From Curvularia clavata (Eukaryota): 64,000 nt of DNA. Below are positions 1-53,960 of the stretch, piece after piece. The notes beneath the pieces were generated by a model, which was given only the letters and a program-made list of their open reading frames with translations, was not told the DNA's origin and made no database searches. Each line of letters opens with the position of its first letter. The stretch's first letter is position 1. Position numbers and translations under genes: made by a program. Location of the stretch: contig CP089274.1 in assembly GCA_023920165.1 (NCBI GenBank), positions 4,216,001 through 4,280,000 on the forward strand, read 5' to 3'.

Positions 1-1098
1 GTCGAAATCGAAATCAAGGTTGGCATTTTGTTCTTCTGAGATGTCCAAATGTAGCTGGGCATTATCGAGGCTGGTGTCATTGTCGGGCGTGGTATCATGC
101 GGAGTTGCGGTTTGCGTGCGAGGCTGCGGTGGATAAATACAAGAGACGTGCCGTCGGATGCATCGTATACAATCTGGTTGCTCCAAGCCACATTTACGTT
201 TAGATTTGGCGCACTCAGCGCACGACTTTTGTCGGCCCTGAGAATTGACCGTTCTCGTCCGATCTACTGGCATGATGCAGGGCTTGGCGTGGGTGTTCGG
301 ACGAGGCGTGTTACTAGGCGATGTACCAGTGCTGACATTGATGGCGCCTGCCATCGTTACTCAGCATGGGATGCCTTAAACCGAACTCCGCCACGACATT
401 AACAATTGCAATTTCCATACATATCTCCGTGTTCGTATGCATCATGAACCACTCGAATGCTCCACTATGAGCCCCATTTACATCAACGACGACCAGAAAC
501 GCTCGTTAACAGCCAATGTGGGGCTGCACATCTGCGGAATTCCGCTCACTCGCTTGGAGTGAACTTCTATCATGGTCCTGTTCATTGAACATGTTCTGGC
601 GCCATGTTGTTATATCTCTAATATATTTGAATAAATTGGTGCACCCACTGAATTATACCTTGATAATATCTGCATTACCCTGCCCACAGCTTAAAGTTCC
701 TTCTAATAACGGATTCCAATGCCTATGAACGATACAATCCCCACAATTGTCGAGATTGCTGATTTCCAAACAACCAAATTCGTAGTGGCGTTCTAAATGG
801 ATCAGGTTTGTCACGCCGCTCAATGGCTTTGTTTACAAGCGACTGTCAACCCCAATAATAGAAAATGGTAGAGTATTTTGTAATGTTTGGTAATTTCCAT
901 TGAGTAAAAGCTCTCGCATGGCTGTCCATTGAAGGACTCAGCAGCACTTGGTGCTGATGTACCTATTCATACATCTTCTCCACCTGGTCTCCCTCGTCGT
1001 TGCATTCTGTAAGCACTCTTTCCCGAACTTGGTATGTGTATAGTAATCTTCTCCACAGATTCGCGCATCTGACATTCTTGAAAGATTCAGAAGCCTGA

Positions 1099-2171
1099 CT
1101 AGAGGAGGGATGTCTCATCTTCAGGCCTTTGTCTACGAGCCTGCATCCAACTCTTGACATAGTACACCGCAAAGGCGACTATCACAGCAGAATGGAAAAT
1201 CACCGTTTCTGCGGCCTTGTCCAATGATTGCGAAACGGTCCTGGACGATCCTGTCTGCCTGCGTACCAAGCGACGCTCGTTCGGGGTGTTCCACCATGTC
1301 CACAACTTCTTAGCGGCTGCTGTAGCAACGGTAGCCAGGGCCCAAGTGCCACCAAAGATGATGGGAGCTCCGAAGCCACCCATCATTGCACTAGTACAGG
1401 TAGCGAATAGGGACCCGGCTACCACATTGCCGATTCCGGCCTGGATAGCGGCTGCTGCACTACCTATAACAAGTCAGAACTTCGGACTGAACCTCGGGTA
1501 TTGAGTGAATGAGACGTACCCGCTGCAACGCCACCTGGACCAAATCCAATAGCCAATAGAGTTATGGCAGCACATGCTGTAGCAACGAGCGGCACGACAA
1601 TGAGAGCGGTCTCCCATGGATGCTCCTGGGCCCAATCTTTCAAAGCCTTTGCGGCACCGATGACGCCTTTCTCCTTCAGTTGGTTGACAGCTGAGTTCAC
1701 TGAGTCTCGGGCCTGCAAGGCAGTCGCCTTGACCTTGCTTGCAGCCACTTTGGCCCCTTCTATAACCAGGCCAGATACATCACGACTGAAATTCTGGAGG
1801 CTTATGGCAATGCCATTATCTTTGTTCGGGTCCCTGCTATCGTTACTAACCCTGTCTCCGGGCTCTGAATTATTATGGGCTTCGTGAGCTTCAGCAACGT
1901 TGTCAACTTCGTGGTCGGTGCCATTCTCTGCATTCTCTGCATTCTCTGCATTCTCTGCATTCTCTGCATTCTCTGCATTCTCTGGCACCTGAGGTTCTGC
2001 AAGATCACCATCGGAGCCATTTCCGGTATTACCACTCGCTTCAGGTCGATCATGATTTTTGTAAGTAGCCTCTGGGATTTCAGCTTCTGCATCCTGGCTT
2101 GGCAGTCTCGTGGAATTACGAAAGATTTGGTTCCAGGCTGCCAAAAGCTTGTTGATATCCATTTTGCCCAA
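1099..2171 (-). CDS. ISG12/IFI6 (Ifi-6-16 family)-like membrane protein with acidic, repeat-containing N-terminus; 2 exons, intron 1464-1519
   Basis: A 56-nt GT..CTGAC..TAG intron joins ORFs 1464..2171 and 1099..1425. The spliced product reads TM-GFGPGGVAAGSAAAAIQAGIGNVVAGSLFATCTSAMMGG, matching the 6-16/ISG12 motif (GF..G(I/V)AAGS.AA...G.V.AGS.FA...S) as I know it. Confidence 0.75.
1922..1984. repeat. Perfect 9-bp tandem repeat (cattctctg)x7 encoding (ENA)n in the ISG12-like gene
   Basis: Seven consecutive identical units read directly from the sequence. Confidence 0.97.
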
Positions 2172-2993
2172 GTGAATCTGTGTTTGGGTTCTTGTGCAGT
2201 TGAGGAAGTGGCAGTTGAGAAGGAGGAGAAAGAGCAGTTAGTCAGTGGGAACGGTGTCACTGCATCCTAGATCGAACGGTAAAGGTAGGCTTGGCATTCA
2301 CTGTTCACCACCTCACCAAAGCCAAACGCATAGGTTACTTGTCTCATTCCTCACAGCAATGGCGTTACATTCTCATGAGGTGAAAACGTGCAGTTTGCTT
2401 TGCCAGCAGACTTTGATTCACCGAATCAGATATGTGTTCCAGCGCAATGCTGATCATTTCTTCTCACTCAAGCTGTATCGACAATTGTTTGTTCCTACGC
2501 ATATGTAGCACAGTGTGCTTAGGCGCTTCCCGGGGTGTCTCAAAGCCCAGCTGCATGGACTGAGTCAATTACGTATGTGCGGTTGTTCAGAGTAGAGACG
2601 AGAGCAAATTGCGTGAGACTTCATCCAGAGCGCACGCGAGTAGGCGTCGCCGTGATGCCTTAAAAGCATAAGAGCGGTGTCATTGTAATGGGGATTGGGC
2701 CATGTGGGGTGGCAGGCAAATGATAGCGCGTCGCGTGGCGTCTTGGCTGCCGCTTACCCCACTTTCGCGTGCTTGCTATCCGCGTCAACACCCTGTTTTC
2801 GTCTCAGCCTGGTTAAGTCTGCCTTGGACCCAGCAACGGTAAAGAACGGGTTCTCTTCTGATATTCGTACATATTCATATTTGAGCAGAACCCTACCAAC
2901 GGCTGAAGTCTCAACAGCAATCTTCTTTCAGTGTAAGACTCGTCTCATCGACGCAGTTTTGCCAGTCCGACAGCCTCACGAGCCATTCAAACC

Positions 2994-5900
2994 ATGTCTT
3001 CCTCATCTCGCGGTGGAAGTGACCGAGGCCGCGGTGGTGGTCGTGGAGGTGGGAGAGGCGAGTTTGGAGGTCGAGGTCGTGGTGATTTTGGAGGTCGGGG
3101 TGGCGGCGCTCCACGTGGAGACAGAGGTGGGTTCAGAGGTGATCGGGGTGGATTTCGGGGTGATCGGGGTGGGTTTCGAGGTGATAGAGGCGGAGGCCGT
3201 GGCAGAGGTGGCTCGCAAATAGTCGAAATCTTCTCGTAAGGCAGAGCTATCTTCCGGCTGAAACTGTCTTTTCGTTAATCCAGACTACAGGAATCCTCAA
3301 CCTCAAGATCAAAGGGTTTTGCAACTTGAAAACACTCTGCATCCTACTGCGAAAAAGACGCTTGATCTCAGCAAGTTGAAGTTATCCGAAGACTATCCAA
3401 CGCGCCCAGGATACGGTACCCGAGGTGCCAGGATTGAGCTTACCGCCAACTATGTCGAGCTGCTTCCGTCATCCAACATGGTCTTGTATCGTTACGACAT
3501 TGACGTCTCTCCTGAAGCTGCTGGCAGGAAGCGGCATCGTATTGTTCAACTTTTGCTCGAAACTTCGGAGATGTCAGCCTACAAAGGTCAGATTGCAACC
3601 GACTTTCGCTCCACAATCGTCTCAAAGGTGAAATTCACGCATGATGACGATATCATTCAAATTCAATACCGTTCTGAAGGCGAAGATGAGCCAGCTGCGG
3701 GTGCTACGGTCTTCAAAGCCAGAGTCCAATACACAAATACTCTAAGCGTTGGCGAATTGGTCAACTGGATGAACTCTACCAATCTTTCTCAATCTTTTGA
3801 ACATAAGTCGGAACTGTCTCAGGCACTCAACATCTTTTTGAACCACTTTGCTAAATCGGCAAACAATCTGGCTACCATTGGATCATCCAAAAGCTTTTCC
3901 CTCCATCAGAATGCAGCCAGAGGTGATCTGGGAGCAGGCTTAGAAGTCATCCGTGGATTCTTTTCAAGTGTACGGATAGCTACGGGCCGTATCCTGGTCA
4001 ACATCAACGTGAGTCACGGGGCTTTTTATCATAACGGTCCGTTGCCGGGACTGATGGAAGGCTATGGTACGCGCAACACAAGCGCTCTCGAAAAGTTCCT
4101 CAAATTGATTCGCGTCCGGACTACGCACTTGAAAGAGAAGCGCAACAAGGCGAACGAGGTGATTCCCCGTATCAAGACCATCTTCGGGCTTGCCAGAAAG
4201 GACGATGGTCATGGCATGGAGCACCGTCCTCGCATCAAACACCATGGGGCTGGCGCCAAAGACGTCGAATTTTGGCTCGATGGTCAACAGAGCTCGCCGG
4301 CCAAGGGTAAGGGTAAAGCTCCACCACAAGGACCATCGACCTCTGGATCCGGGCGGTACATCAGTGTATTTGATTTTTTTCGCACAAGTAAGCGTAGCAT
4401 GCCTCTCGACTTTATTGGCGATTAACCTGATCTAACCGCTCCATAGCATACAACCGTACTCTGCAATATCCTCACCTTCCTGTGGTGAATTGCGGCAACC
4501 GAGAAAACCCGGTTTACCTCCCACCAGAAGTCTGCGTTGTCGAACCCGGACAATCATCCAAGGCGAAGCTCGACGCTTTGCAGACTCAGGTGATGATACG
4601 ATATGCGGTTAGAAAGCCATGGGAGAACGCGAGCTCCATTGTCAAGGAAGGCATCTCTACTGTTGGCCTGGATGCAAACACCAACGTCCTTTTGCGCTCA
4701 TTCGGCCTGAGCATTACACCCGGATTGGTCAAAGTTCCTGGCCGCATTCTCGATAACCCCCAGGTGGCTTATAAAGATGAGGCAAATCCATCAAAAATCG
4801 TTTACCCTAGGCACAACCCCGGTAATTGGAACATGAGAAAGATTCAGTTCAATCAGGGTGCCAGACTGAAAATGTGGAAAGCCGTGCTGATCGGGCTCCA
4901 AGGGAGGCGGGATCCTTTCAATCGAGACGAATTGTTTGCCCTTTTGCAAGAATTTCATCAAGGCCTGTGTAAGATTGGTATGATGGCGGATAAACCAGCT
5001 GATCCAGAAAGGTTGCAACTGCAGCACACTGATGATCCGGCTCTGGGCACTTATCTCAAGCGACATGCGGGAAGAGTACAGCTCCTGTTCATCATACTTC
5101 CTGAGGCCAACATTCCCTTGTATAAGCGGATCAAGACCCTCGCTGACAGAGACTTTGGTATACACAACGTTTGCGCTGTTGGGACCAAGCTAGCCAAGGA
5201 GAGAGGACGCGACCAGTACATCGCCAACGTTGCGCTGAAATTCAATCTCAAGCTTGGTGGAACTAACCAGGTGATAGAGCACAAGAGTCTTGGCATCATT
5301 GGGCAAGACAAGACGATGGTAGTTGGCATTGATGTCACCCACCCAGCTCCTGGTTCAGCGAGCAATGCGCCTTCCATTTCGGCAATGGTAGCTTCTGTCG
5401 ATAAGCATCTTGCACAATGGCCTGCAACCCTTCGTATCCAACGAGGAAGACAGGAAAACGTTGACGACCTTGCCAGCATGCTCAAATCCCGCCTGAATCT
5501 CTGGAAAACTAAGGCCGGTCACCCATCCTTCCCAGAGAATATCCTCATATACCGTGATGGAGTCTCAGAAGGACAATATGACATGGTGCTCTCCCAAGAG
5601 CTGGCTCAGATGCGAAGGGCTTGCGAACAGGTTTATCCGGCGACCGATACTAAGAAGGGCCTTCCGCGGTTCACAGTGATAGTTTGCGGCAAGCGCCATA
5701 AGACGCGATTTTACCCAACAAGAAGGGAGGATGCTGACGACTCTGGCAATACCAAACCTGGCACGGTCGTGGATCGTGGTGTGACAGAAGCACGCAATTG
5801 GGACTTCTTCCTCCAGGCTCACGGAGCACTCCAAGGTACAGCGAGACCGTGTCACTATTACGTTGTGCACGACGAGATCTTCCGCCAGGCCTACGCCAAG

Positions 5901-6197
5901 CAGCTCCCACCTAATTTCCAAAACGTTGCGGATATTGTTGAAGACCTCACACACAATATGTGCTATCTATACGGTCGCGCGACCAAAGCTGTCAGCCTTT
6001 GCCCACCAGCGTATTACGCCGACCTTGCATGTGACCGTGCGCGATGCTACCTGGCTCATCTCTATGACACTCCCGCGCCGAGTGCAGCACCCTCTGTAAC
6101 CGGTACGTCAGCAGCTGGAGGTAGCAGTGCTGCAGCGCCAGAGCCCGGCTCAGTCGAAATCCATCCAAACATCAGAGATTCCATGTTCTACATTTAA
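2994..6197 (+). CDS. qde-2: Argonaute (QDE-2-like): RGG N-terminus, N/L1/PAZ/MID/PIWI; 3 exons, introns 3236-3290 and 4388-4446
   Basis: Motifs RPGYGT..ANY, RGFFSSVR..TGRILVNINV, YLPPEVC, GIDVTHP, IYRDGVSEGQ, KRHKTRF, GTARPCHY and PPAYYADLAC. Both introns have GTAAG donors, YAG acceptors and restore the frame. Confidence 0.96.
3117..3195 (+). repeat. Imperfect 21-bp coding repeat, (GDRGGFR)x3, in the Argonaute RGG/GAR region
   Basis: Translation RGDRGGFRGDRGGFRGDRGGFRGDRGG. Confidence 0.9.
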
Positions 6198-52486: not shown

Positions 52487-53960
52487 CGGAGGTGCATCTC
52501 AAAAGTTTTGTCTGCCAAGAAAAATCCCACCGAAGTCTGGCCGCCTAAGCTAAGATCTACCTCTCCCTTCTATATACTCATTACCACCTTCTAGGTCAAT
52601 TATCTTTGGAATGTGTACAAGAATACGCTCAATCCAAGCTTAGATCTTAGCTTGTGGGAGATCTCTCCAGCAATTTAGCCAGATTCTAGTTGCCTCAGCT
52701 CTTGACTGTGGGGCTCCTTTCTTAGTAGTCTCTCTTTTCATGTAGAACTAGCATGGCTCAATACAGTTACAGTCTGGAGAGTTGCTAGGCCAAAGTAGTC
52801 TCTCGACGCTTGACAGACTATAGACAACATTCTGATACTGGTGGGCGTGTCCAGGTGCCTTATCCTCCATAACTACGGTCTGAGGCCTGTCTTAGAGGCA
52901 CTCTTTAGCGAAAGGAATCAGCTTTGGAATTAGAACGTAGTTCTGATATCTCTACCAGTCTATACCACCTCCAGACGAACGTACTAGCTTGCCTGTCGCC
53001 TCTATCCATCTCCATTGAGGTTTTCTGCCAGGCTTGTTACGTAGCCCTGTCCTTCTCATAGACGTGGACAGCTCCCACTCCTCTCGCTGGAGAGGCTTAA
53101 GCTCAGCGTTAAGCTGCTTAATCTTCTGAGCAGCGTCTTTTTTCTCCACGTTTGTCTCTGGCTGATAGACATGGCATGGACCCTTTTTGTTATACGAGAA
53201 ACAGCCCTAGAACATGAACTCCGAGTATCCCTTCCACCTCTCACGGATACAGCTTTTAACTACTCTCTCATCTACTTTTCTCCAGATTCTATAGCCACCA
53301 CGCCGGTGGTTAAGTACGACAGACGTCTCGTCTGTCCAGATGACATTCTTCCAGTCTTCTAATGTCCAGTCCTTGTGGTCAAGCGCCTACTTAAGACGAG
53401 CACTCCTCATCTCCTGTGTCAGTCCAGGCTTCCTCGTCGGCTTGGTCTTTCTGTATCTGGCTTCTCTTAGTACTCTCCACACTGTAGTGCGTGATATATT
53501 GACTCCTTGAAGACTAAGAGCACCAGCAACGTCAGCGCAGCTCTTCTCCCGTCCGTATCTATCACGTCGTACTTGTTGGATTATCTGCTCCTTCGCCTCT
53601 TCTGTCTGCTTCAAAGGTCGGCCAGAGCGGGGGGCGTCTTGAACGTGGTGTGGGAGGATCTTAAGAGGAAGAGCGTTTGGCTCAAAGCCTGCAGCGATAG
53701 CTCTACTATAGATACGATCGACTGTACGAGGTTGGACACCAGTTAGGCCAGAGACTTGTGACGTAGTCTTGCCAATAGAAGGAGACTTCAATGCGACAAT
53801 CAAAGTCCGAGTATATACATCAGTATGAGGAGCCATTGTAAGAAAATATCTACGTAGGCATCAGTAACTTAGCTCAGCTCAAAGGTGGGAGCTGCGCCAA
53901 GAAGAGTTGCGCCGAATCGCCGAGCTTAGCGTGAGACAAAACTTTTGAGATGCACCTCCG
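52487..53960 (-). mobile_element. Full-length Tc1/mariner (DD34E) DNA transposon, 1474 bp, RIP-inactivated
   Basis: Perfect 27-bp TIRs (cggaggtgcatctcaaaagttttgtct at 52487-52513; reverse complement at 53934-53960) with TA on both sides. Confidence 0.96.
52550..53836 (-). pseudogene. Tc1-type transposase pseudogene (429 codons, in-frame stops, no net frameshift)
   Basis: PRSGRP, WTDETSVVL and MEDKAPGH-(34)-NSPDCNCIE. Stops near 53387, 52952, 52749 and 52640 are TAG/TAA, consistent with TGG/CAA changed by CpA>TpA mutation. Confidence 0.93.

Follow-up and report, generated by a model that had tools for sequence, protein, structure and literature searches.

An Argonaute gene and an ISG12/IFI6-like gene lie head-to-head in Curvularia clavata but apart in the relatives examined

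Animal ISG12/IFI6/IFI27 proteins are about 100-130 amino acids (aa) long and act at the membranes of the endoplasmic reticulum or the mitochondria. To our knowledge, fungi have no interferon system. They nevertheless keep ISG12/IFI6-like proteins, and one of those of Neurospora is switched on by double-stranded RNA (dsRNA) and viruses together with genes of RNA interference (RNAi). In Neurospora crassa, qde-2, dcl-2, rrp-3, and NCU04490, a gene of the 6-16 family, belong to the dsRNA and virus response set, and NCU04490 is listed as one of the dsRNA-inducible genes of Choudhary et al. whose expression rose on infection (PMC7648066, Honda et al. 2020, citing Choudhary et al. 2007). The present study concerns a stretch of 64,000 nt of Curvularia clavata (assembly GCA_023920165.1, contig CP089274.1, positions 4,216,001 to 4,280,000, forward strand), referred to as the window, in which an Argonaute gene on the plus strand and a gene for a 6-16-like membrane protein on the minus strand were located head-to-head and diverged from a short common spacer. 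The first-pass annotation of the window, made from its letters alone, had regarded this pair as a possible physically linked antiviral module and had stated that qde-2 and 6-16-family genes are induced by dsRNA in Neurospora; the latter statement agreed with Honda et al. A fixed pairing of the 6-16-like gene with Argonaute, if true, would point to a conserved two-arm antiviral unit, and the evidence presented here argues against it. The pairing was local, and the conserved neighbor of the 6-16-like gene was a gene for a transcription factor.

The 6-16-like gene consisted of two exons, and its spliced coding sequence of 1008 nt encoded a membrane protein of 335 aa. The ATG was located at 2162-2160 and the stop codon at 1099-1101. 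The start had previously been placed at 2171, with a spacer of 822 bp; the bases 2171-2169 were found to be TTG (Leu), in the same frame as the actual ATG and 9 nt before it, so that the two ATGs were separated by 831 bp. The Argonaute gene extended over three exons from the ATG at 2994 to a stop codon ending at 6197 and encoded 1029 aa. The stretch was contained in 19 public runs, four of which were examined for RNA contigs (Logan). Both Argonaute introns were exactly skipped in three of these four runs, which came from two studies, and the intron of the 6-16-like gene, with GT..AG ends on the minus strand, was skipped in the RNA contig of one run (X5). The signals of the latter intron (GTACGT, CTGAC, and TATAG) were of the fungal type. 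Both genes are therefore transcribed, both gene models are supported by spliced RNA, and the head-to-head arrangement reported earlier was correct. The RNA contigs covered 1955-2410 and resumed at 2798, so that at most 2411-2797 was uncovered, and an uncovered stretch in contigs is no proof of absent transcription. The contig depths were 466, 39.6, and 312 for Argonaute and about 2-18 for the 6-16-like gene, although contig depth in Logan is unsuited to quantifying expression and can neither rank the genes nor measure induction. Small shares of the stretch in the metatranscriptome runs X17-X19 were not taken as an indication of habitat.

When each unspliced half of the 6-16-like gene was searched against Pfam, no family was found even at E<=10, and the same was true of the relative P0003 from Logan. 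When exon 2 (124 aa) was used in a full HMMER search against 1.84 billion representatives, 93 matches were obtained at E<=1e-3. The family PF06140 (Ifi-6-16) was detected in 71 of them at E<=0.01, and 42 reached its gathering score of 29.1 bits; the 22 matches without PF06140 were mostly short open reading frame (ORF) fragments. Many of the fungal matches were 250-340 aa long. A profile was made of the 42 threshold-passing members, which had been chosen through exon 2 only, exon 1 playing no part. The spliced protein scored 170 bits against this profile, and the alignment covered residues 138-287, unbroken across the splice junction. Exon 2 alone scored 93 bits and exon 1 alone 63 bits, whereas the best of 1000 composition-preserving shuffles reached 14.7 bits. 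With a profile of the fungal subfamily (17 members), the top match in the PDB was human IFI27L1 (2loq), with 22.3 bits, an E-value of 8e-4, and the whole hairpin aligned, and the next match had an E-value of 0.13. The Gly/Ala-rich hairpin motif could be aligned column by column with both the family profile and 2loq, and the Alternaria orthologues carried a precomputed PF06140 assignment. The earlier assignment to an ISG12/IFI6-like family was thus confirmed by the PF06140 matches, the profile score, and the match to 2loq. Its remark that the motif was hidden by the intron also held, as Pfam was blank on both unspliced halves while the spliced protein aligned across the junction. By transitive homology, which is solid, the 6-16-like protein does belong to the Ifi-6-16/ISG12 superfamily, as a divergent member, although its own score probably falls below the Pfam gathering cut-off of PF06140. 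Its three nearest full-length relatives scored 18.8, 22.2, and 21.6 bits on PF06140, and the clade is therefore a divergent branch. A word-indexed search with exon 1, in which scoring was limited to the 7999 candidates with the most words in common, returned a single match; crowding by the ENA repeat of exon 1 might be the cause.

The 6-16-like protein began with a head of about 135 residues, of which 21% were acidic and which contained (ENA)6. Hydrophobic windows were found at residues 182-265, with Gly, Ala, and Ser making up 52% of residues 205-262, and a further hydrophobic helix was located near the C-terminus, beyond the Gly/Ala/Ser-rich hairpin. The AlphaFold2 model of a Bipolaris relative, calculated from an alignment of 17 sequences, was all-helical, including the hairpin, at low confidence (mean predicted local distance difference test 56.9, predicted template modelling score 0.27). 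The protein is most likely a membrane-inserted hairpin protein whose long head, acidic and repetitive in part of its length, lies in the cytosol. The gene model is thus a validated one for a fast-evolving fungal ISG12-like protein with a domain split by an intron, and because its defining domain is split in this way, ORF-based and prokaryote-style annotation misses it.

Several side observations were made on this gene. In run X10, a low-depth unspliced contig of 160 nt (window 1381-1540) read through the 56-nt intron; its source is pre-mRNA that had not been spliced or else traces of DNA in the library. The RNA contigs broke at the tandem repeat encoding the ENA units, and a shorter version of the repeat was present in P0003; the length of this repeat probably varies. 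Public metagenome and Logan gene calls included many “proteins” of 84-139 aa that started at the MMGG or MGG of exon 2 of the family (P0005, P0006, P0009, P0025, P0037, P0045, and P0065), one of them under the label “uncharacterized membrane protein YqhA”. They result from prokaryote-style ORF calling applied to fungal exons.

Pfam analysis of the Argonaute revealed ArgoN, ArgoL1, PAZ, ArgoL2, and Piwi, together with a weak Mid match (16.5 bits, below its cut-off). The first 85 residues contained 18 RG dipeptides and 41% Gly, and tandem repeats were located within exon 1 at 3136-3185. The best match among solved Argonautes was the MID-PIWI chain of N. crassa QDE-2 (2yhb), with 349 bits over 374 residues (E 4.4e-103) and an alignment running from chain residue 78 to the chain end, and human Ago2 scored 269 bits. 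The residues D, E, D, and D of the Argonaute aligned with positions 597, 637, 669, and 807 of human Ago2, whose catalytic positions we take to be D597/E637/D669/H807. With this catalytic D-E-D-D and the same YYAD as QDE-2, slicing activity would be expected. Among the best 120 of 225 long relatives at E<=1e-10, the closest were from the Pleosporales, namely a cluster with a Bipolaris sorokiniana protein (80% identity), Exserohilum (78%), and Stemphylium, Alternaria, and Pyrenophora (about 71-73%). A FastTree tree of 53 rows placed the Argonaute as sister to that of Bipolaris sorokiniana within the Pleosporaceae, and some sources name its relatives QDE-2. Identification of the plus-strand gene as a putative QDE-2-type Argonaute is supported by these comparisons. 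The previous call of an Argonaute starting at ATG 2994 was sustained by the domain set, by QDE-2 as the closest solved chain, and by spliced RNA.

As an observation in its own right, a well-supported sister subclade in this quick tree mixed Argonautes of Pleosporales (Melanomma, Lophiotrema, and Lindgomyces) with those of Histoplasma, Ophidiomyces, Talaromyces, Metarhizium, Cordyceps, and several Fusarium species on very short branches (P0114, P0116, P0118-P0121, P0123-P0137, and P0154). Its members were 64-69% identical to the N-terminal half of the window Argonaute, compared with about 50% for other Dothideomycetes, which looks like a transfer across fungal classes. The Argonaute gene model of Ophidiomyces also carried PF11917, which we take to be DUF3435, a recombinase-type domain of mobile elements.

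The neighborhood of the two genes was compared in metagenomic contigs and in annotated genomes. Relatives of the 6-16-like gene were found at 61 loci when metagenomic contigs were scanned with a 4-sequence subfamily alignment; an alignment of 12 sequences was nowhere sufficiently conserved to be used in this way. None of the 61 loci contained an Argonaute in a tblastn search with the window protein at E<=1e-5. Both exons of a close relative were present in 18 of the loci (L001-L018), with the intron mostly at the same place. Ten of these closest loci, representing seven distinct sequences, included at least 1.5 kb of upstream sequence, enough to reveal an Argonaute positioned as in the window. 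By tblastx, 14 of the 18 contained a homologue of window 1-276 on the downstream side of the 6-16-like gene; these loci are positional orthologues because they have the downstream Zn2Cys6 gene in common with the window. Upstream of the 6-16-like gene, these loci showed no match to window 2.2-64 kb. With the downstream side conserved and the upstream side unmatched, the synteny break therefore fell exactly between the 6-16-like gene and Argonaute.

In the annotated genomes, the accession or locus-tag number of one orthologue was compared with that of the other within the same assembly, for 15 pairs from seven taxa. Such numbers usually follow gene order. The gaps were 31, 32, 34, 40, and 46 in Pyrenophora tritici-repentis; 20, 20, 22, and 147 in P. 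teres f. teres; 23 in P. teres f. maculata; 40 and 41 in Alternaria arborescens; 46 in A. tenuissima; 47 in A. hordeiaustralica; and 42 in A. panax. A gap of 1 did not occur in any of the 15 pairs, and the values ranged from 20 to 147, mostly 20-47. In several pairs, the contigs of the two orthologues had an identical length and were taken as the same contig; in A. metachromatica, the two orthologues were on different contigs. The adjacency was thus not conserved in any of the relatives examined, a set with Bipolaris and Exserohilum outside it, an outcome that the first-pass annotation had itself named as refuting its proposal. The proposal of a physically linked module was not supported, with no Argonaute at the metagenomic loci and no adjacent pair among the assemblies. 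The picture is that of two genes staying on one chromosome at changing distances. Frequent intrachromosomal rearrangement has been described for Dothideomycetes and would give such distances.

We consider it about 65% probable that the window contains two independent, functional, and transcribed genes side by side whose head-to-head position is an accident of rearrangement. One of them would encode an Argonaute of the QDE-2 type that belongs to the Pleosporaceae lineage and is competent for slicing. The other would encode a fungal Ifi-6-16/ISG12-family membrane protein in which an acidic, disordered ENA head is followed by a transmembrane hairpin rich in Gly and Ala and by a hydrophobic helix near the C-terminus. 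A lineage-specific intrachromosomal rearrangement would have made them head-to-head neighbors. Trans-acting factors may make each of them responsive to dsRNA or virus, in analogy to Neurospora, and by the same kind of analogy the most likely role of the 6-16-like protein would be that of a stress- or virus-responsive membrane effector, possibly in membrane remodelling or cell death. This reading builds on the gene models, the splicing, the family assignments, and the non-conservation of the adjacency, all of which were established above, and none of these results points to selection on the adjacency itself or to a need for it. Since both genes are on one contig in related genera, mostly 20-47 numbers apart, an occasional juxtaposition by intrachromosomal rearrangement would not be improbable.

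Several points weigh against an accidental arrangement. The two ATGs are close enough for common regulatory DNA, and the RNA contigs cover the spacer except for 2411-2797. In Neurospora, both families have members that dsRNA and virus induce together (PMC7648066), and a functional link would therefore be plausible. The number gaps are a proxy for gene order only, and, judged from the Argonaute side, a second 6-16 gene missed by the annotation may lie next to the Argonaute in Pyrenophora or Alternaria. The gene-order comparison covered Pyrenophora, Alternaria, and the metagenomic loci but not Bipolaris and Exserohilum, whose Argonautes are the most similar, and the adjacency may therefore be common to a sub-lineage.

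Of the alternatives, the one that survived best was a functional bidirectional antiviral unit of recent origin, in which one dsRNA- or virus-responsive promoter region serves both genes and the juxtaposition is kept by selection; we regard it as unlikely. It is favored by the divergent orientation over a short spacer, by the transcription of both genes, with RNA contigs extending up to 2410 and again from 2798 onward, and by the presence of both a Neurospora 6-16 family gene and qde-2 in the induced set (PMC7648066). However, adjacency was absent in every relative examined, both among the metagenomic loci, including the ten that were informative upstream, and among the assembly pairs with their gaps of 20-147, and any co-induction in those fungi would not need adjacency. 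When the spacer was compared with the 800 bp upstream of nine orthologous loci, no usable common motif was found, and only two 9-mers occurred in at least four of the ten sequences.

Less probable still is that an inversion in a Bipolaris-related lineage put a dsRNA- or virus-inducible ISG12-like gene, with its Zn2Cys6 neighbor, beside an antiviral Argonaute and so produced a new, co-firing bidirectional promoter. If it were true, a young antiviral gene pair would have been caught while forming.

Ranked lower again, and improbable in our view, is that the Zn2Cys6 factor is the functional partner of the ISG12-like gene, as its regulator or as a co-regulated gene, with Argonaute as a bystander. 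The Zn2Cys6 gene was the conserved neighbor, directly downstream of the 6-16-like gene and on the same strand, and the tandem pair was kept in 14 of the 18 loci though the 6-16 protein was only about 48% identical there. A same-strand Zn_clus ORF (about 440 aa) was located downstream of the 6-16-like gene in six of the seven loci scanned (L001, L005, L006, L013, L014, and L015), as it is in the window at 1-354, and the upstream side of the 6-16-like gene was unconserved. These features make the Zn2Cys6 gene a candidate regulator or co-regulated partner. On the other hand, few breakpoints fall in a gap of 0.5-0.9 kb, which can be enough to keep close neighbors together, and the window contains only about 118 codons of the factor. 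Finally, that the minus-strand protein is not an ISG12/IFI6 homologue but a Gly/Ala-rich membrane protein alike by composition only is scarcely credible and already largely refuted: the blank Pfam searches of the unspliced halves, the sub-threshold scores of the nearest relatives, and the modest link to human IFI27L1 speak for it, while against it stand the unbroken chain of significant matches to threshold-passing PF06140 proteins, the wide distance between the profile score and the shuffles, the score of exon 1, which had no part in picking the profile members, and the precomputed PF06140 of the Alternaria orthologues.

Table 1. Features of the Argonaute/6-16-like locus and its neighbor (positions in the window)
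Feature	Position	Strand	Content	Support
Zn(2)-Cys(6) transcription-factor gene, 5' part	1..354	-	runs off the window	Pfam Zn_clus, E 7.9e-07
6-16-like exon 2	1099..1463	-	second half of the Gly/Ala-rich hairpin, C-terminal hydrophobic helix, stop	
6-16-like intron	1464..1519	-	56 nt, GTACGT...CTGAC...TATAG; splits the Ifi-6-16 domain	
6-16-like exon 1	1520..2162	-	acidic disordered N-terminus with (ENA)6, long helices, HPWET (residue 181), first transmembrane helix	
Tandem repeat	1922..1984	.	9 bp x 7.0 copies, 100% matches; codes for the ENA repeat	Tandem Repeats Finder
Divergent spacer	2163..2993	.	831 bp between the two ATGs	
Argonaute exon 1	2994..3235	+	Arg/Gly-rich N-terminus	
Argonaute intron 1	3236..3290	+	55 nt, GT..AG	skipped in RNA contigs of X5, X10, X14
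Argonaute exon 2	3291..4387	+	N domain, linker 1, start of PAZ	Pfam ArgoN 8.1e-18, ArgoL1 7.5e-18; 80% identity to the cluster with the Bipolaris sorokiniana protein
Argonaute intron 2	4388..4446	+	59 nt, GT..AG, CTAAC branch site	skipped in RNA contigs of X5, X10, X14
Argonaute exon 3	4447..6197	+	rest of PAZ, linker 2, MID, PIWI with D-E-D-D tetrad, stop	Pfam Piwi 6.5e-73

The other genes of the window encoded a GNAT acetyltransferase, an aminotransferase, a Golgi pH regulator, zuotin, a GRIP-domain protein, a kinase, a GH16 enzyme, oxidoreductases, and acetolactate synthase. By Pfam, these were housekeeping or metabolic genes, with no further RNAi or defense gene among them. The base composition was even across the window. 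An ORF fragment at 53390-53860 on the minus strand contained the helix-turn-helix domain of a Tc1/mariner-type transposase (HTH_Tnp_Tc3_2, E 1.6e-15) and is probably a decayed transposon.

In the open-access literature, no report of an Argonaute/6-16 gene pair was found, and NCU04490 was mentioned in the open-access full text of Honda 2020 only. The titles and the opening lines of the abstracts of open-access papers on fungal Ifi-6-16 proteins contained nothing concerning linkage to RNAi genes. In the Neurospora response set, qde-2 is presumably NCU04730 and not located beside NCU04490. The set and the window have the same two protein families, QDE-2-type Argonautes and 6-16 membrane proteins of fungi; this likeness is at the family level and does not imply orthology of the window gene to NCU04490, and the induction described is that of Neurospora. 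No physical linkage is described in the available parts of PMC7648066, whereas the window genes are head-to-head. The window Argonaute has the same YYAD at the fourth catalytic position as N. crassa QDE-2 and the same C-terminal end (...MFYI/MYYI), and QDE-2 is the best match among solved chains, a likeness that does not imply orthology to qde-2 as opposed to the gene of the meiotic paralogue SMS-2.

The animal proteins of PF06140, represented by IFI27L1 (2loq), resemble the window protein in the Gly/Ala-rich two-helix membrane hairpin with the pattern GF..G.AAGS.AA...G.VAAGSL.A..QS. In contrast to these small single-domain proteins, the window protein has 335 residues and adds the acidic head, long helices, HPWET, and an extra C-terminal helix. 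The closest likeness was found within the Pleosporales, where the “6-16 multi-domain” proteins have the same full-length architecture and are 37-52% identical to the window protein; this set includes hypothetical proteins of Bipolaris oryzae, B. victoriae, and B. zeicola, the “Ifi-6-16 multi-domain protein” of Pyrenophora, and proteins of Alternaria. The exon boundary after GFGPGG was also present in the Logan relative and in the metagenomic loci. The 6-16 genes of Pyrenophora and Alternaria differ from that of the window in lying 20-147 numbers from their Argonaute orthologue rather than beside it. With the two genes adjacent in Curvularia clavata and apart in these two genera, the locus is a natural test case for an effect of adjacency on co-regulation.

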